DNA from: Candidatus Parcubacteria bacterium
GTDB lineage: Bacteria > Patescibacteriota > Minisyncoccia > Phycocordibacterales > UBA918
Reading direction: 5' to 3'
Assembly: GCA_046050355.1 (NCBI GenBank)
Contig: JBJOPW010000001.1
Location: 3,858-67,857, forward strand
DNA: 64,000 nt
This document shows, piece after piece, positions 15,041-57,782 of this stretch. A model generated the notes under the pieces. It saw only the letters and a program-made list of their open reading frames with translations. It was not told the DNA's origin and did not search any database. The position numbers and the translations under genes were made by a program. The stretch's first letter is position 1. Every line of letters begins with the position of its first letter.

Positions 15041-15047
15041 TACAAAA

Positions 15048-15077
15048 GTAACCCGAAGTGCTAGCACTTCGGGTTAC
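15048..15077 (-). terminator. rho-independent terminator of alaS
   Basis: A perfect 14-bp stem, GTAACCCGAAGTGC-TA-GCACTTCGGGTTAC, followed on the minus strand by TTTTGTAATTT; 30 nt beyond the alaS stop. Confidence 0.7.
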
Positions 15078-15106
15078 TGTCTTCTTTATTTTATATTCAA
15101 TCTTCT

Positions 15107-17053
15107 CTATTCAAGAATCGCTTTGATGCGACGCACACCAGCCGAAGATGATTCTTCTTTGGTGATCTTAAACGTACCTTTGATGTCGGAGAGATCATCA
15201 ACGTGTGGGCCACCACAGAGTTCTTTGGATACCACCACCCCATCGTTTGTAGTCATAGTGTAGACCTTTACCTCATCCGGGTAGCGGTCCCAGAACGAGG
15301 CTTCGATAGTGGGGTCGTTTTGGGCATCAACTTTGCTCATCATGCTGATCGTGACCGGGCCTCCCTGCTTGATAGCATCGTTCACGTAGGTCTCGACTTG
15401 ACGAAGCGCTTCGTCAGAAATCTTATCGGGATGGGTGACATCGTAGCGGAGGCGTTCGCCAGTAATATTACTCCCGGCTTGGTGGACGTGGGTTCCGAGT
15501 ACCTGTCGGAGTCCTGCGAGCATGAGGTGGGTGGCCGTATGGTATTGCACGACAATCTCAGATTGGTCGGCGAGGCCACCCTTAAACTTCTGTTCTGCGC
15601 CAGCCCGGCTTTTGGCCCGGTGCTCTTCCATCAGCTTTTCAAAGCCGGCACGCTCAACGACGAGTCCTTTTTCAGCCGCAATTTCTTCCGTCAGTTCAAT
15701 CGGGAAACCGTAGGTGGTGTAGAGATCAAAGGCTTTTTCGGCATTAATCGCCTGCTTGGTGACCGGCGCGATGTCACGGTCAATCACCTTCTGTCCATCA
15801 ACTTCCTTGCTCGTGAGGTGGATTTGGAGGGAAACCTTGTTAAATTGTTTGAGCCCTGCTTCGAGGGTCTTGCGGAACTGTTCTTCTTCACGACTGATAG
15901 CCGCCTTGATATCACCGCGCTTTTCACCCAAGTTTGGATAATGAGCTTCGTAGGTTGAAATCACACTCTCCGCTAATTCAGCAAATTTACCGGCTGGGAT
16001 ACCAATTTTGTCGGCATAGCGCACCGCGCGACGGAGGAGGCGGCGGACAAAGTATCCTTGTTGATCATTACTTGGATACACGCCATCACCAATCATAAAG
16101 ACGGCTCCACGGATGTGGTCAGTAATGACACGAAAGGCTACTTCGTTGCCGGCATAGAGCTGACCTGAGAGAGAAGCAATCTGTTTTACTACCGTATGGA
16201 GCAAATCTACATGGAAAACGTCTGGATTCCCGACCTTCGCGGCGGCGATACGTTCGAGTCCACCACCAAAATCCACATTACGCTGGGGGAGCTTCGCAAA
16301 ACTACCATCCTCCTGCTTGATGTACTCAATAAACACCGAGTTACCGATTTCTAGGAATTGTCCGGAGTCACTATTCGGGTGTGCTGCCTGAGTACCATAG
16401 ACCGGATGGGTCGCATGTTCTGGGCCAAAGTCATAAAAGACTTCACTGTCTGGTCCACCAATTTCGCCAGCTGGCATATTACTTGGCTTGCCACTACGAC
16501 TCCACCAATTTTTGCCGGCGTCATAGTAGAAGATGCGACCACCTTGCATACCAACTTCGTAGCCATCTTCTTCACTGCCGATAAAGACGTCTTTCGCTTC
16601 AATACCGCGTTCGGCAAAAAGTTCTTTCCAAATGGCCACTGATTCATCATCACGTGGAATACCAAGTGCTTCGTCTCCGGCAAAGACAGTTACGTAAATA
16701 CGAGCCGGATCAAGCCCGACTTCATCAACGAGGAAGGTGAAGAACCACCGGAGTTGTTCCTTTTTGAAGTAGTCACCAAGTGACCAGTTACCAAGCATTT
16801 CAAAGAAGGTGGTGTGACGATTGTCCCCTACTTCTTCGATGTCATTCGCCCGAAAACACTTCTGCGAGTCAGCGAGACGGGTACCCATCGCATGCTTTTC
16901 ACCCATAAGGTATGGGATGAGTGGCTGCATCCCGCTGCCGGTGAAGAGCGTGGTCGGGTCATTTTCCGGTACGAGCGCGGCAGACGGAATAACCGCATGA
17001 CCATTTTTGGCCATGAAGTCTAAATACCGCTGTCTGATCTCATTTCCACTCAT
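15107..17053 (-). CDS. alaS: alanine--tRNA ligase (catalytic, tRNA-recognition and editing domains; lacks the C-terminal C-Ala domain)
   Basis: N-terminal IRQRYLDFMAKNGHAVIPSAALVPENDPTTLFTGSGM; editing-domain motifs HTATHLMLAGLRQVLG and CGGPHV. At 648 aa it is about 220 aa shorter than canonical AlaRS. Confidence 0.9.
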   Translation of the reverse strand: MSGNEIRQRYLDFMAKNGHAVIPSAALVPENDPTTLFTGSGMQPLIPYLMGEKHAMGTRLADSQKCFRANDIEEVGDNRHTTFFEMLGNWSLGDYFKKEQLRWFFTFLVDEVGLDPARIYVTVFAGDEALGIPRDDESVAIWKELFAERGIEAKDVFIGSEEDGYEVGMQGGRIFYYDAGKNWWSRSGKPSNMPAGEIGGPDSEVFYDFGPEHATHPVYGTQAAHPNSDSGQFLEIGNSVFIEYIKQEDGSFAKLPQRNVDFGGGLERIAAAKVGNPDVFHVDLLHTVVKQIASLSGQLYAGNEVAFRVITDHIRGAVFMIGDGVYPSNDQQGYFVRRLLRRAVRYADKIGIPAGKFAELAESVISTYEAHYPNLGEKRGDIKAAISREEEQFRKTLEAGLKQFNKVSLQIHLTSKEVDGQKVIDRDIAPVTKQAINAEKAFDLYTTYGFPIELTEEIAAEKGLVVERAGFEKLMEEHRAKSRAGAEQKFKGGLADQSEIVVQYHTATHLMLAGLRQVLGTHVHQAGSNITGERLRYDVTHPDKISDEALRQVETYVNDAIKQGGPVTISMMSKVDAQNDPTIEASFWDRYPDEVKVYTMTTNDGVVVSKELCGGPHVDDLSDIKGTFKITKEESSSAGVRRIKAILE

Positions 17054-42003: not shown

Positions 42004-45000
42004 ATGCATAATCTATGGTTTTTCTTCTTACGTAAGCAAGAATTTAGTTGGCTTGTCATCCTGACCCTGATTGCGCTTGGGGTGTATGCACTTATTGCCA
42101 TCCCGAAGGAAGCCTCGCCTGAGGTAATTGTGCCGGTGGGTATTGTGACGACTGTCTACCCTGGTGCCTCTGCTCGTGATATCGAGGAACTTATCACCAA
42201 TCGCCTTGAAGACGCAATTGAGAATGTTGACGATATCAAAGAAATCACCTCAACGTCACGTGATGGTGTGTCTTCAATCACCGCTGAGTTTAATGCTTCA
42301 GCCAACATCGACGATTCAATCCAGGCACTGAAGGATGCCATTGATACCGCCAAGGCTGAACTCCCGCGCGATGCTGAAGACCCCATTGTGTCTGAGGTGA
42401 ACTTTGCCGATCAGCCGATTTTTGTTATCTCGATTTCTTCTGATGCTACTCCGGCCGATTTCACGACGCTCAGTGAGACTTTAACCGATGAGTTCAAAGA
42501 TGTGCTCGGTGTGAGTAAGGTTGATGTTCAGGGTGTTCGCCCTCGTCAGGTACAGGTCGTCATTCCACCTGAGCGTCTCACGGCTTTTGGTGTAACCTTA
42601 AACGATGTCACTGGAGCACTAGCTCAGAGTAACAATGGCTTCCCGGTTGGTGCTATCACTGCCGGTGGCGTTGAGTACAGTGTACGTCTGGAGGGTAAAC
42701 TTTTGACCCCGAAGGATGTCGAAAATGTCATTGTCACAACCAAAGCTGGTACACCGGTCTATCTCAGTGATGTCGCGACCGTGGTCGAGACTGTCGACGA
42801 AGCTTCGTCGCTCGCTCGCGTGTCGGTGGGTGGCCAACCGTCAGAACTGGCGATGACCATCTCGATTTACAAAAAGTCTGGGGTGAATGTCACGACGATG
42901 TCCGACGCCGTGAACGAAAAGCTCGCTGCTATGCGGGCAGAGGGAGGACTCCTCGCCAGCTCACAGGTACTCGTTATCTTTGACCAGGGAGAAGATACTA
43001 AAGAGCAGCTGAATGAACTCGTGAAGGCTGGTGCCGAGACGGTAGTCCTCGTGATGATTTCGCTCCTCCTCACTATCGGGTGGCGTGAATCAGTGGTGGC
43101 TGGTCTCTCGATCCCCCTCTCATTTGTGATTGCCTTTATTGGACTCTATGCTTCAGGGAACACGATTAACTTCCTTTCTCTCTTTGCGCTTATCCTCGCG
43201 GTCGGTATCCTCGTGGACTCCGGCATTGTGGTGACCGAAGCCATCCATACACGCCTCAAACGTACTGGCAACCCACTGAAGGCAGCTCAAGAAACTATTC
43301 GTGAGTACGCCTGGCCGCTGATTGCTGGTACGATGACAACAGTAGCGGTATTCGCTCCCCTCTTCTTCCTGTCCGGCATTGTTGGACAATTTATTGCCTC
43401 AATTCCGTTTACGATTATCTTCGTACTGATTGCGTCGATTATTGTAGCGCTTGGGATGGTGCCGCTCATCGCAATTCTCTTTACGAGTAGTAAAGCACCA
43501 AACCGCTTCGAAGTAATGCAAGAGCACTACACCGAACTCGCTCAGGCGTGGTACCGTGCGCACCTCGTAACCTTCCTCCAGAACTTCCGTGCCCAACGCT
43601 GGTTCTTGTGGTCACTCTTTGGCGGCTTCTTGCTAGCGCTTCTGTTGCCAATTTCGGGGCTTCTTAGTGTTATTTTCTTCCCGCCGGAAGACGTTGACTT
43701 TATTTATATCGACATTGAAGCCAAAGAAGGGACTCCGCTTGCTGTTACTAATGTTGCTGTTCGTCAGGTGGAAGAGCTGCTCTACGAAGTGCCAGAAATT
43801 GAATCTTTCTCATCAGCTGCCGGTGGTGGTTCGGCCTTTACTGGATCTGGTGCCGCTGATGCCCGCTACGGTAACGTCACTGTCGCCCTCAACAAAGAGC
43901 GCGAGCGCTCGAGTGCCGAAATCTCGACTGATCTCCGCGCCAAACTCGCTACTATCAAGGACGTAACGGTGGCAATTACCGAACAGCAAAATGGCCCACC
44001 AACTGGGGCACCCATCTCATTTACTTTTACTGGAGATGATATGAATGCGCTTGCTAAAGCGGCTGAAGATACGAGTCTTCTTCTCGAAAATGAGAAGGGC
44101 GTCCGAGATGTCACCAGTAGTGCGGACTCTAGTTCGGCTGAGTTTGTCCTTCGGATTGATAATGCCAAGGCCAGCCTCCTTGGTGTCAATTCAGCGAGTG
44201 TTGGTCCAGTCCTCCGGGCGGCGGTGTATGGACTCACGGCGACTACCCTCCGCCGTGATGGTGACGATATCGATGTGGTGGTACGTCTTGGTAACCCAGA
44301 TGAGATTCTCAGTTGGTCGACGACACCAGAGATTACCCTTGATACCCTCCGCAATATCCAAGTACAGACTATGACGGGTGAGACAGTCCTCCTTGGGTCT
44401 CTCCTCACGGACGACTATACGCCAGCGAACTCCGCAATTAATCACAAGGCCAAGGAACGAATTGTGACCGTTGATGCCTTTACCGCAGGCGATGTCACCG
44501 CGACAGAAATTGTGGCCGCGATTACTCCACAGGTGCAAGCAATCGCCAAGAACAATGGTGTTACGCTTTCTCTCGGTGGTGAAGCCGAAGATATCAATCA
44601 GTCATTTACCGAGATGTTCCTGGCCTTGATTGCCGGACTTCTCCTCATGCTTGCGATCCTCGTACTTTCCTTCAACTCTGTCCGCTACTCGTTCTACCTC
44701 CTGCTCGCCGTACCATATTCACTCATTGGTGTGTTTGTCGGTCTAGCTGCCACTGGATTGGCACTGTCGTTCACCTCGCTCCTGGGGGTGATTGCGCTCG
44801 CTGGGGTGATTATCAACCATGCGATTATTCTCATGGACTCACTGATCACCGCGAAGGCGTCACACGGTACTACCGGATCACTCATTGATCAGGTAGCTGA
44901 TGCGTCAGTATCACGACTTCGTCCAATCTTCCTTACGACCATTACTACGGTCGTGGGTATGATCCCACTCTCACGCATCTCAGACTTCTGGAGTCCACTG

Positions 45001-45235: not shown

Positions 45236-45799
45236 CTACGTATTGGCTACACTAGGAGCAGGCACCACCTCCTTTTTGCGGGCATTGAGTAGGGCCATAA
45301 TGCCGTTCACGAGACCAACAGCTAAGCACAAAATTGCCAGGTACCCAAGCACAAATTGTCCGTAAGTAAAGGTAGTAAGCTGTAGTGGTATGAGTGCAGC
45401 GATCGTCCCGAGAGTATACCAACTTCCCGCTTGAAGACCTGGACCAAAGGTACTTGGCATAATCCGGAGTGTCATCAAGATGGCATTGCTATACAAAACC
45501 AAAATAACTGTCCACTGCGCAAAAAGTATCGGATTTAGTGCGGCTGCACCGAGTTGATAAGTTTTGTAGGCGGTGAGCAAGGTGAGGGTAAAAAAGAGCA
45601 ACACCATAGCTACTCGCAGCACCACATATACGACTGACATCATCTTTCGTTCTGTAATATCGATTGATCCATCAGCGATAGCCACAAAAAAATTAGTAAT
45701 AGCTAACGTTGATGCCCCAACTCCAAGTGAAGTGGCAAAACTAAAAATAATCGCAACAAAAAGCATTATAAGTTCCATATAAGCGTATAGTAACACCAT
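45236..45799 (-). CDS. hypothetical polytopic membrane protein
   Basis: Hydrophobic throughout; alternative start MELIMLF at 45778. Confidence 0.5.
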   Translation of the reverse strand: MVLLYAYMELIMLFVAIIFSFATSLGVGASTLAITNFFVAIADGSIDITERKMMSVVYVVLRVAMVLLFFTLTLLTAYKTYQLGAAALNPILFAQWTVILVLYSNAILMTLRIMPSTFGPGLQAGSWYTLGTIAALIPLQLTTFTYGQFVLGYLAILCLAVGLVNGIMALLNARKKEVVPAPSVANT

Positions 45800-45870
45800 T
45801 GTTTGCTGAGTTTGACCGGGGATGTTAATTAACTATACATGCACCATGAGCATGGTACGATCGCCACCGT

Positions 45871-46638
45871 CTAGAATGCTTGTTCTGACCAATTGAGTGA
45901 ATGGACAGCCACACCTGTTTCAGTCATCGTTCCTTTAACTTCTGCGTAGGCAGCTTCTTTGAATGTTGTTTCGTCGCAGGTGGTAGTGACACCGGCGATC
46001 TGGCAGGTGCTTGAAGCTGTTACGAGCAGTGGTACAACGTGCCCACGGGTACCATTTTCAGTAAATACCAAATGCCATTTTGTATTATCAAACGGAGCCG
46101 GTACATTCTTCAACAGTTGTCCTTTGGTATCAAAACTAAACTCCCGTGCCTCGAGCACGTCACCCGTAGAGCAATTGATGGCAGTGATCACCCAGTCCTG
46201 TCCTACCACTTCCATAGTCACCACGGCATACCCACTTGGTGTACCAGTGGCAAATTTTGACATCACCATGAGCTCTACTTCAGTCGGGAGTTTGTGCACG
46301 TATTTCATTCTCAATTTATCGGGCGTTGCACTCTGACAAAGCAGTGGATCAGAGGCTCCTCCGGTGTTGAGGTCAGCAATAAGCTTGTCTTTTACGGTGC
46401 TGGTGAGTATCGTTTGGCTAAGGAGAATATTATCTGGTTTAACTTTACCATTGGTCTTGGTTTCTTCGAGCCAGGCGTTATAAAAGTCAAAAGCAACATC
46501 TAATGCATCGGGAAGTTCACGAACCTGATCGTTCTTAACGGTCAGTGATGTGCTGTACCACAAGAGTGAACAGAGCGCCAAAAGTCCCAAGACAAAGCCT
46601 GCATAAATAATATACTGCCGTTTGTTTACTGTTTGCAT
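45871..46638 (-). CDS. hypothetical N-terminally anchored secreted/membrane protein
   Basis: TM segment YIIYAGFVLGLLALCSLLWY, then a 220-aa domain with several Cys. Confidence 0.5.
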   Translation of the reverse strand: MQTVNKRQYIIYAGFVLGLLALCSLLWYSTSLTVKNDQVRELPDALDVAFDFYNAWLEETKTNGKVKPDNILLSQTILTSTVKDKLIADLNTGGASDPLLCQSATPDKLRMKYVHKLPTEVELMVMSKFATGTPSGYAVVTMEVVGQDWVITAINCSTGDVLEAREFSFDTKGQLLKNVPAPFDNTKWHLVFTENGTRGHVVPLLVTASSTCQIAGVTTTCDETTFKEAAYAEVKGTMTETGVAVHSLNWSEQAF

Positions 46639-46717
46639 AAGATTACTAGTATATCAGGTGATGACGAGGACGCTTGCATTTACTTACTAGTAGTTCTGTG
46701 GTCAGTGTGGCTACAAT

Positions 46718-47782
46718 TTGAAGGACCGCTTTGTCCATAGGCCAAGCATAAAAACCGGTACATGGTATACTCTAAAAATGTCACCGAAACAGAATTGGAG
46801 CACAAAGAACACTGAATTTCGAGGTAATGGAAAAAATATTCCGCTGCATAGGTACGTGCTTCTGGCTGTGCTTATGTCTACGTTCATGATTGTTTGGCAC
46901 TATGTTAAGTTAATTCACTCAACCGACCCAAATTCAGACAATGAATACTTTGCTGTGCCAAATACTGAACAACAAAGTCAGTTCGCATACTCAACAACAA
47001 GTAATTCAATCTATCGATCAAATGCACCTCAAAGTAACTTCCAAAAAGTTAGCGGTACGCTTATGTGCGGTAGTGAGGTTGTGTCTAATGACCCGTCATT
47101 AGAGCTGACAGATTGTTCATTCTTGAAAAATCGCGAAATTAGATTGTACTGCCCTGGTTCATATCGCGATGACAATCGGCTATATATTGCACCATCCGAG
47201 TCTTGTTTGGGCTGGTTTTCAATTGATGTTAACTCAATTAAAACTCTGTCATCATTGTACTTTGCTGATCGTGATAATGTATACACTGCAATAAATGGCA
47301 TTGACACTAATGTGATTAAAATTGTATCAACTGAACCTGAAACATTTAAAGTTTTAAGTGTTGGGTTTGCAAGTGCAAGCGACAAGTTGCTCTTTGCCTA
47401 TAATCTGATGGGACGAAGCAGCTCTCCTGTTATCCCTGATGCAGACCCAAGCACCTTTTCAATCATAAATAGTTACTACGCAAAGGATAGTAAACAGGTA
47501 TATTTTATCCGACCTCCGAAACATGAAGGATTTCCTGAAGTAACTGTTGCTAGTGCTATAGATGCTCAAACCGCGTCAATACTCTCTACTGAGTGGCCTG
47601 AATTAATAGCCGATGACACAAGTGTCTATCTCTACGGCCTCGCCGAGCAAGGTATTGATGCGCGTACATTTAGAATTTCATCAACTACAGGAGATGTTGC
47701 AATTGCAACAGATAACCTGCGAGAATACTTCATTAAACGAAGTGGTGACGACACAAGGCTCGTTCAAATCACTGTACGTTAA
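46718..47782 (+). CDS. DKNYY-repeat domain protein, N-terminally membrane anchored
   Basis: Repeated YFADRDNVYTAI / YAKDSKQVYFIR / VYLYGLAEQG motifs resemble DKNYY repeats. The gene is visibly AT-rich relative to the window. The start may be the Met at 46778. Confidence 0.5.
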   Translation: MKDRFVHRPSIKTGTWYTLKMSPKQNWSTKNTEFRGNGKNIPLHRYVLLAVLMSTFMIVWHYVKLIHSTDPNSDNEYFAVPNTEQQSQFAYSTTSNSIYRSNAPQSNFQKVSGTLMCGSEVVSNDPSLELTDCSFLKNREIRLYCPGSYRDDNRLYIAPSESCLGWFSIDVNSIKTLSSLYFADRDNVYTAINGIDTNVIKIVSTEPETFKVLSVGFASASDKLLFAYNLMGRSSSPVIPDADPSTFSIINSYYAKDSKQVYFIRPPKHEGFPEVTVASAIDAQTASILSTEWPELIADDTSVYLYGLAEQGIDARTFRISSTTGDVAIATDNLREYFIKRSGDDTRLVQITVR

Positions 47783-47989
47783 GGAAAAACACTAGCTACC
47801 TTTTCTTCGCAAATAGAAACAAGGAAATATATAATATTGATCTTCAACTACAAGGATCGTTTCTTATATAGCCAGTACAATGTGTAACGTAAACGAATCG
47901 GTTACCAGTCACTTAGTACATTTGTTCGCTTCGCTCCAAATATAATAAGTTAAGTGTTGATGACTCGTAAGAAGCAAGATTGATTGTTT

Positions 47990-48235
47990 CTCACTACTGG
48001 TCCTTACAGGACCAGTACACCTTGTGGTTATAATTATTTCGCTACGCTTATAATCTAACTCACAAGGTCTTCGATTCCCCCGTAACGGAATCGGTCACGC
48101 TCATGGGTTTTCATTCGCTTTGCTCATAAAACCTCATTCGCCCGACCCGGACTGTTCCGGCCCTAAAGGGGACCACGGAACAGTCTTTCGATTCCCCTAA
48201 GGTCTCACAATGACAACGACCGCAATGCATGCGCA
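47990..48235. repeat. hairpin-dense region beside tRNA-Ala(GGC) containing two inverted partial copies of the tRNA 3-prime end
   Basis: Stem-loops CTGGTCC-TTACA-GGACCAG, GGACTGTTCCG...CGGAACAGTC and GACCGCAATGC-ATGC-GCATTGCGGTC. The + strand carries TTCGATTCCCCC at about 48069 and TTCGATTCCCCTAAGGTC at about 48189, the reverse complement of the tRNA gene strand. Confidence 0.7.
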
Positions 48236-48252
48236 TTGCGGTCGGTCATATG

Positions 48253-48325
48253 TGGACCTTAGGGGAATCGAACCCCTCACCTCTTCCATGCCATGGAAGC
48301 GCTCTACCAAATGAGCTAAAGGCCC
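48253..48325 (-). tRNA. tRNA-Ala (anticodon GGC)
   Basis: Manual fold GGGCCTT / D-arm GCTC..GAGC / anticodon stem CTTCC-ATGGCAT-GGAAG / T-arm AGGGG-TTCGATT-CCCCT / AAGGTCC-A. G3:U70 Ala identity pair is present; no encoded CCA. Confidence 0.85.
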
Positions 48326-48363: not shown

Positions 48364-49404
48364 CTAGAGAATCAGCATCGCATCGCCAAAGGAATAAAAC
48401 CGATAGTGTTCCCTGATGGCTTCTTCGTAGAGCTCGACGATATGTCGCCGGCCACCCTTATGCTCGATATACGCCTGTACGAGACACATAAGTGACGAAC
48501 GCGGTACATGGAAGTTCGTCATGAGGATATCTGGATACGTAAAGGCATACGGCGGATAGATAAAGAGGTCTGCCGCACCGACTGTTCCCTGTCCTGCTGC
48601 CACACTTTCTTTGCTACTCTCGAGTGTGCGCACCACCGTGGTACCTACTGCCATGATTGGTCTCCCTGTGTCTCGCGCTCTCTTGATGCGCTCTGCAGTA
48701 GTGTCTGGCACGACGTAATATTCTTCGTGCAGTTTCTTATTTTGGAAATTCTCGGCAAATATTGGTGCAAAGGTACCAAGTCCGGCCTGGAGGGTAACCG
48801 GATCGATTGAAACTCCATTTGCTTTGAGAGTAGCTATTAGTTCCGGGGTGAAGTGGAGCGACGCTGTTGGTGCGGCGACTGATGGTGCGGCTGCTGCAAA
48901 TACTGTCTGGTAGTCCGTTCGCTTCAGGGACTCCTCGGCGCTACTCTTGATATATGGCGGCAGTGGTGTCTCGCCATGGGCAAGGAGGAGAGCATGGAGG
49001 AGTTCTTCCTTACCTTCAAACTTGAGCACCATACTCTTTTCACGGTTATCTACTACCGTGAAGTACGTATCAAACACTTCAATTGTCTCTCCGACCGCGA
49101 CGCCACGATTCACGAGTGCTCGCACGGCACCATCGGGATTTATCCCCTGGTCGACGAGGATGAGGAGTTCTATTGGTGAACCATCATAGACACCCTGTAG
49201 CCGAGCAGGTAGTACCTTGGTATCGTTCACTATTATCGCTGCTCCAGCGACAAACTGTGGCAAGTCGCTAACCCGAGCGTGCGTCACGGTATCGTGCTTC
49301 GTATCGTAGACTAACAACCGTGCACTATCACGTGGTGTGGCTGGTGCGTGCGCAATCAGATCTGTCGGAATCTCGTAGGCAAATTGATCGAGAATAGTTT
49401 CCAT
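48364..49404 (-). CDS. queA: S-adenosylmethionine:tRNA ribosyltransferase-isomerase
   Basis: The N-terminus FAYEIPTDLIAHAPATPRDSARLLVY...VNDTKVLPARL parallels QueA. Confidence 0.85.
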   Translation of the reverse strand: METILDQFAYEIPTDLIAHAPATPRDSARLLVYDTKHDTVTHARVSDLPQFVAGAAIIVNDTKVLPARLQGVYDGSPIELLILVDQGINPDGAVRALVNRGVAVGETIEVFDTYFTVVDNREKSMVLKFEGKEELLHALLLAHGETPLPPYIKSSAEESLKRTDYQTVFAAAAPSVAAPTASLHFTPELIATLKANGVSIDPVTLQAGLGTFAPIFAENFQNKKLHEEYYVVPDTTAERIKRARDTGRPIMAVGTTVVRTLESSKESVAAGQGTVGAADLFIYPPYAFTYPDILMTNFHVPRSSLMCLVQAYIEHKGGRRHIVELYEEAIREHYRFYSFGDAMLIL

Positions 49405-49860: not shown

Positions 49861-50346
49861 AACCGTATACTACCACTATCAGTCAGGGGGACAACTTGAC
49901 AGAGTGTCTATTTCAGTCGAGTTTACATGCAAAAAGGCCTTTTCAAGCTATTGACATCTCCCACTTTTATTTTGCTATACAGTATTTTCACACCCGACAA
50001 AGCAGGAGGAAAATTGAGTTGTGTTTTTGAAAAGTTATTGTGTGGTATAGATAGACATCGTCATCCCTTTACCAATTTGTTTCAAGTGAAAAGCGCCCAG
50101 GGTAAGCCATGGGCGCTTTCAGGCGGGTTAATTCCCGCAGGCACTAGTTACTGTTTGCTTCGATACAAGCAGCACGGGTCGTGTGAATGAACCCGTATTT
50201 GTCGACATAATATGTCTTTTGCATGTGTGTACTCCTCTGGTTAAAAAACGTAGTTCCCAGAGGCTCTTCAAATCTTTACATCGTATAAAGTAAGCCTCTG
50301 TAGAGGCAGTAAACCACAGGATTATTGATTTTGCAATTGCCAGAAA

Positions 50347-50643
50347 TCAGCTTTTAATTTTATTTCGGATTTGTGCAATCACGAGACCCAACCCCATAGC
50401 CATTAACGAAAATATAATCATTGCTGTATATGGATTACTAAATACATCTTGCGGCATTATATTGATTTTAGTGAGAGCTGTGTATGTCAGCGCTACAAAT
50501 GCAAAACCCCAAAAGAAAGATTGGATAATGTGACCAAATTCACTTTTAAATTCAAACCCACCTACGGCTAAAAGAAAGTACCCTGGAATAGAAAAAAGTA
50601 CTAGATGCAAAATCTCAAGATTTTCTAAGTTGAACATTTCCAT
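50347..50643 (-). CDS. hypothetical small membrane protein (3 TM), last gene of the defence-like operon
   Basis: Start moved to MEMFNLENL so that it abuts the stop of the upstream nuclease gene instead of overlapping it. Confidence 0.45.
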   Translation of the reverse strand: MEMFNLENLEILHLVLFSIPGYFLLAVGGFEFKSEFGHIIQSFFWGFAFVALTYTALTKINIMPQDVFSNPYTAMIIFSLMAMGLGLVIAQIRNKIKS

Positions 50644-50644
50644 A

Positions 50645-51814
50645 TTATTTATTACCTTTCGCAATATTATGTGGTCTACATAGCATCTGACAGTTCTTAA
50701 TATCAGTTGGCCCATTTTTGCTCCAGGCAGTTACATGATCAGCATCCATTTCTTTGAGCTGCCAAATTTTGTCTTTGTTTACATCATGACCAACTGCGCA
50801 AAGTGGACAGTTTGAGATTCCTGTCTTCTTCGCATCAGCAGTTTGCGCTTCATATACAACGCGTTTTGTTGATTCCTCAAAGACTCGTAGTTCAAGCAAT
50901 TTTGCATCCACTTCCCCGCCGAGGACATATTCAAAGATGCCGGATCGTTTTTTTACGAAACCATCAGCATAGAGTCGTTTAACTGCAGCAGACACAGCTA
51001 TAGGATCGTATTTGGTCTTGTGGTATGTCTTATACAGGCGGTGCCACTCGAGACCTTTCATTTCATTTTCAACGTCTGTAAACGTGGTCGAAATCCAATC
51101 AATTACCTTATTGAAATGCTTTTTTAGTTCGGTGATCTCAGTATCGTGACGATGGAGACTCATGTAGTTGTCTATTGCTCCATCAGACACCCAATCTAGA
51201 GTAGTTTCGAGGTATGCTTGACGTTTGATGTCTCCCTTTAGATACGCACTCCATTTCTGTACGTTCGCATTTTGACTGTTGCTAAACTCACTGCGTGCGA
51301 GCGTGACAAACGGACCGGAATACACCGCGTTAAGGATCTCTTGCTGTGTAAGTGGTACACCCGATATATTAATAGTGCGGAACCAGTCTTTGATCTCTGG
51401 TTCATCTCCTTCGCAGATATAGATATGGAGCTTTGTTTTGAGAATTTGCTCCCGTTGACTACTAGCCATACCACTATAGTATTGCTCGTGACCATTTTTA
51501 TCTTTCACTGCAAATTTGCCTGTGACAAAACGACCGATACTTGTGATGCGCTGTTGACCATCAAGTACGTCAAAGGTGTCTTTGCCAGTTTTGTTGAAAT
51601 AGAACAGACCAATTGGATAGCCTTTCAGTAGAGATTCGATGACTAAAATTTCTCGTTTACCTCCATCTTCTGCATATATGTAGTTGCGTTGATACTCAGG
51701 CTGTATGGTTAGCTTCCCAGATAAGCCAAAGAGGCCCTTACCTTCAAGTTCACTGTATTCAAATCCTTCGCTGATTTCGCGAATGGTAATGTCACTTCGT
51801 AAAAGGGTTTTCAT
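50645..51814 (-). CDS. DUF262 (ParB/Srx-like NTP-binding) - HNH endonuclease fusion, GmrSD-like
   Basis: N-terminal QPEYQRNYIY and VLDGQQRITSI (the DGQQR signature of DUF262). C-terminal CPLCA...DADHVTAWSKNGPTDIKNCQMLCRPHNIAKGNK is a canonical HNH motif with a zinc-binding Cys. Confidence 0.75.
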   Translation of the reverse strand: MKTLLRSDITIREISEGFEYSELEGKGLFGLSGKLTIQPEYQRNYIYAEDGGKREILVIESLLKGYPIGLFYFNKTGKDTFDVLDGQQRITSIGRFVTGKFAVKDKNGHEQYYSGMASSQREQILKTKLHIYICEGDEPEIKDWFRTINISGVPLTQQEILNAVYSGPFVTLARSEFSNSQNANVQKWSAYLKGDIKRQAYLETTLDWVSDGAIDNYMSLHRHDTEITELKKHFNKVIDWISTTFTDVENEMKGLEWHRLYKTYHKTKYDPIAVSAAVKRLYADGFVKKRSGIFEYVLGGEVDAKLLELRVFEESTKRVVYEAQTADAKKTGISNCPLCAVGHDVNKDKIWQLKEMDADHVTAWSKNGPTDIKNCQMLCRPHNIAKGNK

Positions 51815-51816
51815 AT

Positions 51817-53010
51817 TTACTTTTGTTTGTGTTTTATTAAGACTCTTTGGTATACCTTTTCACGTAAGCCATTTTTTACTAATACACCACTTGCATTTAA
51901 ATCGTATGTTCCAGGTTTTCCAAATTTGTCATAATACGCTTGTTTACACTCTGTAGATGTATATATTTTTGTTTTTTGTTTATATAAATCTTCATTTTCA
52001 CACATCCCAACAATTTCAAATTGTTCTGGGGAATACTTGTCTAAAAAACTAATCGGAACACCCATTACACCATTGTAATCACTCGGTATTGCGCTCGTAA
52101 ATGAAACTTCAAGTGCATCATAATTTTCATATTTATCATACGTACTTTTACCCTGCAATTTTTTGTTGAATTTTAAATTGTCAGCAATAGTCATTAATGA
52201 TAAAGGTCTATGTCTACGACCATGATCTAGATTAGTAAACCAACATGAATTTCCTAATCGCGTATAGTCACCTATATATCCAAGTCTAGCGGCCTTTTCT
52301 TTGTCTTCTTTTGCAATGTCTGCACCATTAGGTACTGCAAACACCATGTCGCTACCATTTCCAGTTGCGCCTAACCAAAGTTGATTTGCCTTAATTAAAG
52401 AAAAAATTTCTTTATATGTTATTGCGTTCATATTGCCAATAATAAGAACCTTTTTTTTATTCACAAAAAGTTGTGATACATACTCTCGAAACAAACTAAA
52501 AGGAGGATTGGTTACTACAATATCTGATTGTTTCAGTAACTCTACACATTCTGGACTACGAAAGTCACCGTCACCTTCCAATGGTGTCCATTCATTGTTC
52601 TTATTAGCTTTGAGTTGCTTCGCGATATCAGCGAGTGTAAAAGACCCATCACCATCAACATCGCCTACTTCGTTGATGATGAATTTGTTGGCTGTGATTT
52701 TTGGGCGACCTTTTACTGGTTCAAGGGTGAGATCATCACCAAAAAGTCCTATCTGGGTATTTGCAACCGGCGATGGTTTGTAACTTGTCGTAATAAGTGA
52801 CTTAAGTCCAAGACGTTTGAAATTGAGAACAAAGTATCTGAAAAAATTGCTTTCAAATGGGTCATCGCAGTTGCAATAGACTACTTTATCTTTGAAAGTG
52901 TTTTTGTCGTATTCGAGATAGGACTCAACTTCTTTTTGAATATCAGAAAACTGCGTATAGAACTCGTCGTTCTTTGCCTTTTTTGCCGCAGTGAGATTCT
53001 TATTTGCCAT
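51817..53010 (-). CDS. N6-adenine DNA methyltransferase, EcoRI-methylase family
   Basis: KNDEFYTQFSDI...KVVYCNCDDPFESNFFRYFVLNF..LGLKSLITTSY and DIVVTNPPFSLFREY parallel M.EcoRI closely, as I recall it. The start was moved to MANKNL. Confidence 0.8.
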   Translation of the reverse strand: MANKNLTAAKKAKNDEFYTQFSDIQKEVESYLEYDKNTFKDKVVYCNCDDPFESNFFRYFVLNFKRLGLKSLITTSYKPSPVANTQIGLFGDDLTLEPVKGRPKITANKFIINEVGDVDGDGSFTLADIAKQLKANKNNEWTPLEGDGDFRSPECVELLKQSDIVVTNPPFSLFREYVSQLFVNKKKVLIIGNMNAITYKEIFSLIKANQLWLGATGNGSDMVFAVPNGADIAKEDKEKAARLGYIGDYTRLGNSCWFTNLDHGRRHRPLSLMTIADNLKFNKKLQGKSTYDKYENYDALEVSFTSAIPSDYNGVMGVPISFLDKYSPEQFEIVGMCENEDLYKQKTKIYTSTECKQAYYDKFGKPGTYDLNASGVLVKNGLREKVYQRVLIKHKQK

Positions 53011-53011
53011 A

Positions 53012-53404
53012 CTATAGTATATTACTATATTCTGGATAATGCTCGGTGATGAGCTTTTGCCAAGCGGCAGTTTCATTCTTACTTGCGAGATCGGTCTTGC
53101 TATATACAAGCAAGACCGATACTCGATGTTCTTCAGTGTGCCAGGCTACAATGGTGCGGTTGCCTGATGTTTTAGCAGATTCTTTGGTACCAACGACGCG
53201 GAATTGCGTTTTGATAATTTTTATAGTTTCAGTTTCTGAAATAATTGTTGCCTTATCTGTCTGTAGTAATGCTTCAATACGCGTCAACTCGGCTATGATA
53301 GCGTCGAGTGTTACATCCCAGTGATGTTTGTATTTTTTAGCAAATGACTTGAGAAAATGGCTCGTTGCAAAGTCTTCTATCACTACTACAGCATTGCCAG
53401 ACAT
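53012..53404 (-). CDS. putative toxin (RelE/ParE-superfamily-like fold) partnered with the Panacea-domain antitoxin
   Basis: 130 aa. The C-terminal GNRTIVAWHTEEHRVSVLLVYSKTDL resembles the RelE/ParE tail. It sits immediately downstream of the antitoxin-like gene. Confidence 0.45.
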   Translation of the reverse strand: MSGNAVVVIEDFATSHFLKSFAKKYKHHWDVTLDAIIAELTRIEALLQTDKATIISETETIKIIKTQFRVVGTKESAKTSGNRTIVAWHTEEHRVSVLLVYSKTDLASKNETAAWQKLITEHYPEYSNIL

Positions 53405-53416
53405 ACCTAACCGTTG

Positions 53417-54154
53417 TTAGAACACTTTATCAGGGTCTTCTTGGGTAATAAGAGCGTATGGTATAAGCTCATCAATTTTGCATATCGTATACGGTAGTTG
53501 GTTGTGAGTGAAATTGACGATATCAATAGTCTTTTTATCTTTCCATTTTGTACCGATTTTTTTCATCAGTTTTACTTCGTCAGAACTGAGTGTAGATATC
53601 TTCTCATTAGTGTTTGATTCTGATTCACTAATAAGGAACATCGTACGACCTTTGTCGTCGGTCTTTCGATCAATGAGAATTTTTCCGGCATCTTCTAATT
53701 CGTCGATGGCACGGAAAAAAGCATCCGGCACTGGGCCATGTTCGATCTTGCGATACTGCATGCCACTCATGCTACTCATGGTATCGTAAAACCATGCAAA
53801 GTCAGCTAGGTAGAGTAACTTTGCTAGTTTGGTCTTCGGAATTTTGCTGTCAGGAGAAAGATTCATTCGCAAGTACGTCAGTATCATATGCTTGTACTTT
53901 TGGATATTGGGAATATTTCCTGATAGCAAGTCATCGACGCTCAGTGCGTACAGATTAGCTAGTTTCTTCACTTCGTCAGTATCGAGTTTTTGTTTGCCTG
54001 ATTCAACAGCAGCGTAGGTTGGGCGAGAGACACTGATGGCATTTGCGACTTCTTCTTGTGACAGCTTATTTTTAATACGCAAATCTTTGAGAATCCTCTG
54101 CATATACATGGTCATATGACCAAGTATATGCAGATATGTAAAAAAGTCAAGCAA
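53417..54154 (-). CDS. HTH-XRE plus Panacea (DUF4065/SocA-like) domain antitoxin
   Basis: N-terminal LKDLRIKNKLSQEEVANAISVSRPTYAAVESGKQ is a Cro/C1-type HTH. The C-terminal KLAKLLYLADFAWFYDT...IEHGPVP matches the Panacea domain. The start may be the Met at 54103. Confidence 0.65.
   Translation of the reverse strand: MLDFFTYLHILGHMTMYMQRILKDLRIKNKLSQEEVANAISVSRPTYAAVESGKQKLDTDEVKKLANLYALSVDDLLSGNIPNIQKYKHMILTYLRMNLSPDSKIPKTKLAKLLYLADFAWFYDTMSSMSGMQYRKIEHGPVPDAFFRAIDELEDAGKILIDRKTDDKGRTMFLISESESNTNEKISTLSSDEVKLMKKIGTKWKDKKTIDIVNFTHNQLPYTICKIDELIPYALITQEDPDKVF
54110..54123. promoter_or_regulatory. perfect palindrome TGGTCATATGACCA at the 5-prime end of the antitoxin gene; candidate autoregulatory operator
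   Basis: Read directly. Confidence 0.4.
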
Positions 54155-54265
54155 AAAATGTCAGAAAACTGACAAAATTAGATTTTATTGGCAGAATAGC
54201 AGTTAATCAATAGATAAAGTTTGTAGGCACAGAGACACCTAGTATGAGTGATTTAAGAGGTATAA

Positions 54266-56810: not shown

Positions 56811-57782
56811 TTATGAATACACCCGGGCTGTTTTAACCAGATGATCAATCAATTCATTAAAACTCAAGCCAACTGCTACCGCCGCTTTGGGGAAGAGGGA
56901 TTCACTCGTGAGGCCGGGTAGGGTGTTTACTTCAAGGAAGTACACTTCCCCATCTTTGATGATACAGTCGGTGCGGGAGTACTGCGAGAGACCGAGGACT
57001 CGATGTACCAGTCGGGCGAGCTCTGCGATCTTTTCTTTTTCTTCGTACGAAAATCGACCAGGACAGAGTTCGGTGGTGCTACCGTCGTATTTTACCGTTT
57101 CATCAAAGAAGGCACGCCCTTGCGGCGGAATGATTTCGATAGCCGGGAGGCTGTAGAGGTCGTTGTCACGGAAGTCACTAAGGACGGCACAGGTTGCTTC
57201 GGTCCCCTGTATATGTTCTTCTACCATACATTCACCATACTGTGAGACAGCAGCGTAGAGGGCGTCTTTGAGCGTATCGGCTGCAACGATTTGGACACCG
57301 TGGGATGAGCCACTTTGCGTGGGTTTGAGCACGTACGTTGGTCCGAAGCTATCGGCAATGACCCGTGAGACAGCTTCGATATCGAGGAGATTATCATTGG
57401 TAACCCGGACGTGTCGCGGTAAGTGGAAGATGTGCTCGCGGAGCGCCCGCTTGGTCATATCTTTGTTAAACGCCATGGCTGAAGCAAAAGAATTACTGCC
57501 GGTAAAGGGGATGTGGAGACGCTCACAAATACGTTGGACGGTACCATCTTCACCATAGGCACCATGCATAGCAATGAAGACGACATCAGTGGTGAGAAGC
57601 GCCTTATCTGGGTCCTTGACTCGCCCATCAACAATCCATTCGCCAGTTTTTGACACAGTGATATCTGTCACGTGGTAGCCGAGGTCAGCAAGGGCACGGA
57701 GTACCCCCGCGCCGGTCTGCATCGACACGTCGTATTCACTACTCGGACCTCCACGCAAAACTGCGACACGAGTCTTGGTCAT
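56811..57782 (-). CDS. ddl: D-alanine--D-alanine ligase
   Basis: RVAVLRGGPSSEYDVSMQTGAGV..., ATP-grasp motifs and the C-terminal EVNTLPGLT. Confidence 0.9.
   Translation of the reverse strand: MTKTRVAVLRGGPSSEYDVSMQTGAGVLRALADLGYHVTDITVSKTGEWIVDGRVKDPDKALLTTDVVFIAMHGAYGEDGTVQRICERLHIPFTGSNSFASAMAFNKDMTKRALREHIFHLPRHVRVTNDNLLDIEAVSRVIADSFGPTYVLKPTQSGSSHGVQIVAADTLKDALYAAVSQYGECMVEEHIQGTEATCAVLSDFRDNDLYSLPAIEIIPPQGRAFFDETVKYDGSTTELCPGRFSYEEKEKIAELARLVHRVLGLSQYSRTDCIIKDGEVYFLEVNTLPGLTSESLFPKAAVAVGLSFNELIDHLVKTARVYS

Follow-up and report, generated by a model that had tools for sequence, protein, structure and literature searches.

A Panacea-domain antitoxin and a RelE/HigB2-like toxin as a probable autoregulated module in Patescibacteria

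What is the two-gene unit that stands directly before a restriction-modification (R-M) gene pair in a genome of the Patescibacteria? The unit lies in a 64,000-nt stretch of contig JBJOPW010000001.1 from Candidatus Parcubacteria bacterium (the window, to whose positions all coordinates refer). It comprises a gene for a protein with a helix-turn-helix (HTH) and a Panacea domain, panA, and a following gene for a protein of 130 amino acids (aa), panT. A sequence-only reading had taken the two products for an antitoxin and a RelE/ParE-like toxin, with a palindromic autorepression site at the antitoxin gene and a place at the head of an R-M-like operon. Our analysis indicates that the pair is very probably a type II toxin-antitoxin module of the PanAT kind, composed of a RelE/HigB2-like mRNA endonuclease (mRNase) as toxin and the antitoxin PanA, and autoregulated through the palindrome.

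Both open reading frames (ORFs) were found where that reading had put them, on the minus strand, and the ORF list shows all relevant genes of the locus on this strand and closely packed. As called, the first ORF runs from a TTG at 54154 to 53417 and encodes 245 aa. Translation almost certainly begins at the ATG at 54115 instead, which gives 232 aa, because the identical NCBI protein has 232 aa, homologous gene calls give 227–234 aa, and the conserved promoter described below would otherwise fall within the TTG-extended reading frame. The proposed combination of an HTH of the XRE type with a Panacea domain held for both parts. In Pfam, the 245-aa ORF matched HTH_3 with E 6e-13 (49 bits against a cut-off of 23) and SocA_Panacea (PF13274) with E 4.9e-13 (50.4 bits against a cut-off of 25.7), the latter over profile positions 1–111 of 113; according to precomputed annotation, SocA_Panacea is present in all of the 120 homologues listed. 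The AlphaFold model of PanA has a five-helix HTH domain that superposes at 1–1.7 Å on 434 repressor/Cro, DdrO, C.AhdI and C.BclI. The fold search with this model returned matches to HTH domains only, C.EcoT38IS among them, and retrieved no solved Panacea structure. We recognized no PanA domain besides these two. Since the other one is a DNA-binding HTH, the Panacea part is the likeliest toxin-binding and neutralizing surface, in line with Ernits et al. (2023; PMC10440598).

The 130-aa protein gave nothing above threshold in Pfam, NCBIfam or PADLOC; a sub-threshold hint came from PF06296 (RelE), with E 0.1 and 13.3 bits against a cut-off of 27. It belongs to a compact family, with 170 near-full-length relatives of ∼60% identity in a set of 5.8 billion proteins, and 217 cluster representatives at E ≤ 0.001 among 1.84 billion. 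An AlphaFold2 model computed from a 50-sequence alignment reached a predicted local distance difference test score (pLDDT) of 89.5 and a predicted template modelling score (pTM) of 0.85. Its elements follow in the order strand, two long helices and a short one, four strands and a C-terminal helix. When this model was compared with the PDB by Foldseek, the first 31 matches all belonged to the RelE superfamily (RelE, HigB, HigB2, PfiT, YoeB, the RelE domain of Cami1, and one ParE). At the top stood an archaeal RelE (1wmi, probability 1.00), HigB2 (8a0x, 5ja8 and 5mje), HigB (5ycl and 6kml) and RelE1 (9g12); HigB2 of Vibrio cholerae, HigB of Escherichia coli and Shigella, and RelE1 and RelE2 of Mycobacterium tuberculosis are all among the 31. 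We regard this model-based evidence for the fold as good but not overwhelming.

Profiles of the toxin family, searched against all PDB sequences, had HigB-2 of V. cholerae as their sole match, with E 1 for a narrow alignment (A1) and E 0.02 for a 70-member alignment that extends down to 28% identity (A3). In HigB2, alanine substitution of Arg51, Arg64, Tyr82 or Lys84 each lowers activity 170- to 3000-fold (PMC5416850). These residues align to R/K69, R83, Y101 and K103 of the toxin studied here, in an alignment that rests on the weak HMMER match. R/K69 is kept in 49 of 50 homologues and the other three in all 50; across the 70 members of the wider alignment, R83 is invariant and Y101 and K103 are at least 90% conserved. 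The 50-sequence alignment has 21 invariant columns, all predicted catalytic positions included. The two proteins also have in common a basic, glycine-containing loop before strand β3 (KESAKTSGNR in the toxin, ASKGKGRGGS in HigB2). On the basis of the fold matches to RelE, HigB and HigB2, the sequence match to HigB-2 and the conserved HigB2 catalytic positions, we infer that the 130-aa protein is an mRNase of the RelE/HigB2 type rather than a gyrase poison of the ParE type. Of the broader RelE/ParE label first given to it, membership of the RelE superfamily is borne out by fold and catalytic positions, and by sequence only below threshold; the subtype indicated is RelE/HigB2, not ParE.

The resemblance to the HigB2-HigA2 system of V. 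cholerae (PMC5416850) thus covers the RelE-like fold of the toxins, the basic loop before β3 and equivalents of the four active-site residues, and an HTH of the XRE type is found in both antitoxins. In HigBA2, however, the toxin gene comes first, and HigA2 neutralizes with a disordered N-terminal segment and carries its HTH at the C-terminus, whereas here the antitoxin gene comes first and its product has an N-terminal HTH followed by Panacea. The sequence similarity of the toxins is marginal, and we do not class the pair as a HigBA2 system.

The two genes, separated by 12 nt, stay together across the family. In seven of seven annotated contexts, an HTH-Panacea gene lay directly upstream of the toxin homologue, and the neighbours differed (housekeeping genes, an MmeI-type enzyme, a type I R-M system, and an Mrr/helicase cluster). 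Likewise, in 87 of 88 loci searched by tblastn, the gene immediately before that for the toxin homologue encoded a PanA homologue; the remaining locus is cut off by a contig end. The two genes stay paired while their neighbours change, and they therefore form an autonomous module. When one genome per species was scanned, 112 genomes had a relative, and 80 loci were listed. All but one of these 80 come from Patescibacteria or unclassified bacterial metagenome-assembled genomes, and the remaining one (L037) was binned as a Methanosarcinales archaeon. No relative was found in IMG/VR viral contigs or PLSDB plasmids, a search that did not cover the phage records of INPHARED. As far as these searches show, the toxin family is restricted to Patescibacteria. 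The cultured Minisyncoccus archaeiphilus is among the genomes with a relative: the chromosome of strain PMX.108 (L069, 1242711–1251082) carries a distant PanA-toxin pair of ∼50% identity, with a promoter-like region and without a long palindrome. At two other loci (L006, 5460–6591; L021, 2411–3049), a second, divergent HTH_3 and Panacea gene of 26–28% identity directly follows the first pair. In L006 it is in turn followed by a 125-aa ORF with the RelE-like motif NRNIRVIYAY...IEIYFKGDK, and this locus thus holds PanAT modules in tandem.

The DNA in front of panA is organized as a promoter. The best σ70-like match in the region has 10 of 12 hexamer positions and reads, on the coding strand, TTGACT, a 16-nt spacer, TATACT, 7 nt and the ATG (Table 1). 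TTGAC is kept in nearly all of 78 homologous upstream regions, and in the −10 hexamer T, A and the final T are invariant (alignment A2). The distance from the −10 hexamer to the ATG, read by eye, is 6–9 nt in homologous loci. No Shine-Dalgarno sequence precedes the panA ATG. Given so short a distance, the panAT mRNA is probably leaderless or nearly so. About 9 nt upstream of the −35 hexamer lies a second conserved motif, with the family consensus ATGTCAA-N5-TCGACA/TTGACA; it is partly symmetric (67.6% paired) and looks like copies of the −35 hexamer in inverted and direct orientation. This motif had been flagged as terminator-like. That it serves as the terminator of the preceding gene is unlikely, since it is conserved beside different upstream genes, usually without a T-run.

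The perfect 14-bp palindrome TGGTCATATGACCA that had been reported at the start of the antitoxin gene is present at 54109..54122, but it is only the core of a larger element. By itself it is not unusual, as the window holds nine perfect 14-bp palindromes where ∼3.5 are expected. The true element is 38 bp long, with 19-nt arms, one mismatch (95% complementary) and no spacer; arms with up to one mismatch reached 14 nt at most in 30 simulated sequences. The two arms meet directly in front of the ATG: the −10 hexamer falls within the left one, and the first 19 nt of the coding sequence make up the right one. The palindrome thus spans the −10 box and the first six codons as well as the likely transcription start. 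The site suggested for autorepression is therefore a conserved 38-bp palindrome, within which both the start codon and the −10 box lie. Across 54 loci, the 16 outer pairs are 86.8% complementary, compared with 28–53% when the partner is slid by 1–3 columns. Changes on both sides were seen in 11 of these 16 pairs, and none of 500 shuffles reached the observed values. Compensatory examples are the changes from TATACT/AGTATA to TAAACT/AGTTTA (L008) and to TATGCT/AGCATA (L028). The architecture of promoter and palindrome recurs in homologous loci with unrelated upstream genes. Judged by its sequence, the module carries a candidate palindromic operator over its own promoter, with PanA as the putative ligand.

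Other long palindromes occur in the window: a perfect one of 56 bp at 1908–1963, a perfect one of 32 bp at 15047–15078, two with arms of 25 and 21 nt (at most one mismatch) near 2637 and 39149, and further ones at 15399–15416, 42795–42810 and 47695–47710. These exceed the simulated maximum or sit at its edge.

Taken together, the locus would work as follows. The toxin would act as a HigB2-like, ribosome-dependent mRNA endonuclease of the RelE superfamily, and PanA would neutralize it by direct binding, most likely through the Panacea domain. PanA dimers would bind the 38-bp palindrome through the N-terminal HTH of the Cro/C1 type and thereby repress the strong σ70-type promoter of the module itself, from which the toxin gene would be co-transcribed with panA on the probably leaderless mRNA.

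Several observations weigh against this model. By sequence, the link of the toxin to the RelE family stays below every curated threshold (PF06296, PF05016 and similar); PF06296 was matched, even weakly, in just two of the 50 alignment members, and 10 distant representatives had no Pfam match. The structural comparison has its own limits: the best Foldseek E-value was 2.6e-3, with no match reaching 0.001, and the template modelling scores of the top matches were moderate (0.41–0.47 when normalized to the query, 0.52–0.67 when normalized to the target). The PanA model is only moderately confident (pLDDT 72.9), and the last 36 residues are highly conserved yet have a pLDDT below 50. In the most distant quarter of the family, no long palindrome exceeded the shuffled expectation, though the promoter-like region was kept. 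Finally, across the 54 loci in which the operator arms covary, the HTH keeps an essentially invariant recognition helix (GVSRPTYTAIE), which is not what simple sequence-specific recognition predicts; the idea that changes in this helix track the operator variants was rejected for that reason. The N-terminal arm of PanA, itself encoded by the right arm of the palindrome, may partly set the specificity. Alternatively, the covariation may have arisen by template switching, which can homogenize quasi-palindromes and so give covariation without any role for a hairpin.

We then asked how far the R-M genes downstream of the pair bear on its function. The methylase matched PF13651 with E 1.7e-123 and PADLOC MTase_II with E 5.4e-102, and the restriction enzyme matched PADLOC REase_II (PDLC03418) over its full length with E 1.4e-83; by sequence, the two are a bona fide type II R-M system. 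The methylase ATG lies 1 nt past the toxin stop codon and the ATG of the restriction gene 2 nt past that of the methylase. On the minus strand, no terminator-like site is predicted between the toxin and R-M genes; a terminator-like hairpin is found at 50307..50294. Because the genes abut the toxin gene and no terminator is predicted in between, co-transcription of the R-M genes with panAT is likely, and they would probably be read, at least in part, from the panAT promoter. The hairpin lies past a hydrophobic 122-aa ORF (50347–50715, minus strand) that overlaps the 3′ end of the restriction gene; this ORF had no Pfam or PADLOC match and no homologue in related loci.

The linkage at the head of an R-M operon, as proposed earlier, is thus real in the window but is no property of the family. 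Only five of the 88 PanAT loci carry this R-M family, and in the other four (L017, L039, L052 and L061) it stands upstream of PanAT with other DNA between. An account of the island as a circular permutation of the methylase-restriction-PanA-toxin order in these four loci was rejected, since the 122-aa ORF is unshared and the intervening genes differ. The cassette of methylase and restriction genes has more than 8000 homologues, of which the 120 best-scoring ones listed are 71–100% identical and come from Patescibacteria and other bacteria, including a gammaproteobacterium. Methylase and restriction genes were paired in every related locus examined whose flank reached far enough upstream. PanAT was absent from 84 further cassette loci (L089–L172). 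Where a gene occupies the slot upstream of the methylase, usually 1–3 nt separate its stop codon from the methylase ATG (at the Fic locus L093, ∼10 nt). Its product can be a small HTH_3 protein of the size of a controller (C) protein (five loci), AbiEi/AbiEii (three), Fic (two), a MerR-type HTH protein, T5orf172 or DUF5655. The window fits this pattern of a cassette whose head position is variably occupied by regulators or toxin modules.

These data raise the possibility that the HTH-Panacea protein acts in the window mainly as a C-protein equivalent that times the restriction enzyme, its role in a toxin-antitoxin pair being secondary. The tight spacing of the genes and the lack of a predicted terminator would suit such a role, as would the C-protein-like HTH: besides the structural matches to C.AhdI, C.BclI and C.EcoT38IS, PADLOC Control_protein matches it with E 1.3e-6. 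Small HTH_3 proteins fill the slot upstream of the methylase at five of 60 loci of the same R-M family. Moreover, leaderless mRNAs and autoregulation through palindromes are features of many C-protein genes (PMC2632904), and PanA is like C.PvuII and C.AhdI (PMC2632904) in its Cro/C1-type HTH, the palindrome beside its own start codon, the probably leaderless mRNA and, in the window, its position at the head of an R-M operon. On the other hand, PanA is no small stand-alone HTH protein: it has 232 aa, includes a Panacea domain, and its gene always comes with a toxin gene. C-dependent promoters have no recognizable −10 hexamer and are activated, whereas the near-consensus −35 and −10 hexamers of panAT are overlapped by the palindrome, which implies repression. 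The same pair, promoter and palindrome occur in 83 of the 88 family loci without such R-M genes nearby, the four other R-M-bearing loci have them upstream with separate intergenic DNA, and 44 of the 60 R-M loci with enough upstream sequence lack any tightly coupled upstream gene. The methylase would also need expression free of the repressed promoter, for which there is a weak candidate promoter-like site at 53063..53036. We therefore consider a primary controller function unlikely. A stabilizing effect of PanAT on the island, or control of the R-M genes by it, would be compatible with these data. Only as a speculation do we suggest that the PanAT promoter and operator here stand in for a controller protein, with PanA gating both toxin and restriction enzyme at the exchangeable head slot of a mobile cassette.

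The palindrome itself could be read not as an operator but as a nucleic-acid hairpin, either in a read-through RNA that hides the start codon or as a DNA cruciform. Covarying arms beside an invariant recognition helix would agree with this, and as RNA the element has a folding energy of −24.5 kcal/mol (z −6), its AUG sitting at the hairpin tip. Yet the left arm holds the conserved −10 hexamer of a near-consensus promoter, and the spacing puts the transcription start at the centre of the palindrome, so that the transcript of the module itself would lack the left arm. Read-through is not conserved either, since the upstream genes vary across loci, and no credible Rfam match was obtained at the palindrome. 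Homogenization by template switching could yield the covariation without hairpin function. A hairpin role thus seems improbable to us, and we prefer an operator.

For the toxin, a DNA gyrase poison of the ParE type, or some other non-nuclease use of the RelE/ParE fold, has to be weighed against the mRNase. RelE and ParE have one fold, members of which differ in activity (Ernits et al., 2023; PMC10440598), and ParE domains are on record among PanT partners (Kurata et al., 2022; PMC8832971). The Foldseek list does contain ParE2 structures, but ParE ranks 31st and 44th with probabilities of 0.51 and 0.20, compared with 0.9–1.0 for RelE, HigB and HigB2. The profile matches in the PDB were to HigB-2 only and the four HigB2 active-site positions are conserved, which leaves a ParE-type activity very improbable. 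Chromosomal toxin-antitoxin genes often decay, and the pair might have decayed or been domesticated, leaving a RelE-fold protein that has lost its toxicity, but with both ORFs intact, strong constraint at the 21 invariant columns, predicted catalytic positions included, and the regulatory DNA conserved too, we give this hardly any credence.

Table 1. Positions of the predicted features in and around the panAT locus.
Feature	Window positions	Strand	Evidence
panA antitoxin, 232 aa, HTH_3 and Panacea	53417..54115	−	Pfam; identical NCBI protein; upstream of toxin homologue in 87/88 loci
HTH_3 (Cro/C1-type) domain, residues 9–63 of the 232-aa protein	53927..54091	−	Pfam; model superposition; PADLOC
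Panacea domain PF13274 (formerly DUF4065), residues 97–208	53492..53827	−	Pfam
panT, predicted toxin, 130 aa, RelE/HigB2-like fold	53012..53404	−	AlphaFold2; Foldseek; profile search; conserved residues
EcoRI-type adenine methyltransferase, 397 aa, ATG 53010	51817..53010	−	PF13651; PADLOC MTase_II
DUF262 (GmrSD_N) and HNH type II restriction endonuclease, 389 aa, ATG 51814	50645..51814	−	Pfam; PADLOC REase_II
−35 hexamer TTGACT, predicted panAT promoter	54145..54150	−	σ70-like match and conservation
−10 hexamer TATACT, within left arm of palindrome	54123..54128	−	σ70-like match and conservation
38-bp palindrome, putative operator (core, 14-mer 54109..54122)	54097..54134		Palindrome search; simulations; covariation
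Upstream motif TGTCAG-TTTT-CTGACA	54159..54174	−	Conserved in homologous loci

The panAT and R-M genes lie in a block from ∼50000 to 54200 with a G+C content of ∼39%, compared with ∼51% in the flanks. Housekeeping genes stand on either side of this island, QueA at 48364..49404 and D-Ala-D-Ala ligase at 56811..57782; the 122-aa ORF is inside it. A search for direct repeats flanking the island found none of note. Proteins identical to those encoded here are on record from a 'Candidatus Parcubacteria bacterium' assembly. A second patch of low G+C content (39–43%) at 45500–48000 contains a DKNYY-family protein (46718..47782) and two ORFs, 45236..45799 and 45871..46638, without a family match. With a tRNA-Ala(GGC) gene located at 48252..48325, this patch may be another acquired segment.

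The module is of an already known kind, PanAT. Kurata et al. (2022; PMC8832971) described dozens of toxin domains as partners of Panacea antitoxins, ParE, MqsR and PemK types among them, and 343 PanA sequences with N-terminal HTH domains have been described (PMC8832971). In the network of type II toxin-antitoxin systems obtained with NetFlax, RelE/ParE ranks with the most frequent folds (Ernits et al., 2023; PMC10440598). Compared by published description, the pair in the window agrees with these systems in its PF13274 antitoxin, the N-terminal HTH, the conserved two-gene organization and a toxin of classical type II fold. It differs in that its toxin lacks a Pfam or NCBIfam model and that the antitoxin gene comes first; among the Panacea systems that Ernits et al. 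(2023; PMC10440598) analysed, 78% have the toxin first. What is new is an uncurated toxin family confined, within the reach of our searches, to Patescibacteria, the antitoxin-first order, and a well-defined anatomy of promoter and operator.

A RelE/HigB2-like toxin family without a curated model thereby joins the known partners of Panacea. Promoter, 38-bp palindrome and probably leaderless start are conserved in more than 50 genomes, which makes autoregulation by an HTH-Panacea protein directly testable, and through the member in Minisyncoccus archaeiphilus the system could be studied in its own cultured host. Furthermore, toxin or regulator modules recur immediately ahead of a single widespread R-M cassette, which provides a small, concrete case of the modular assembly of defence operons.

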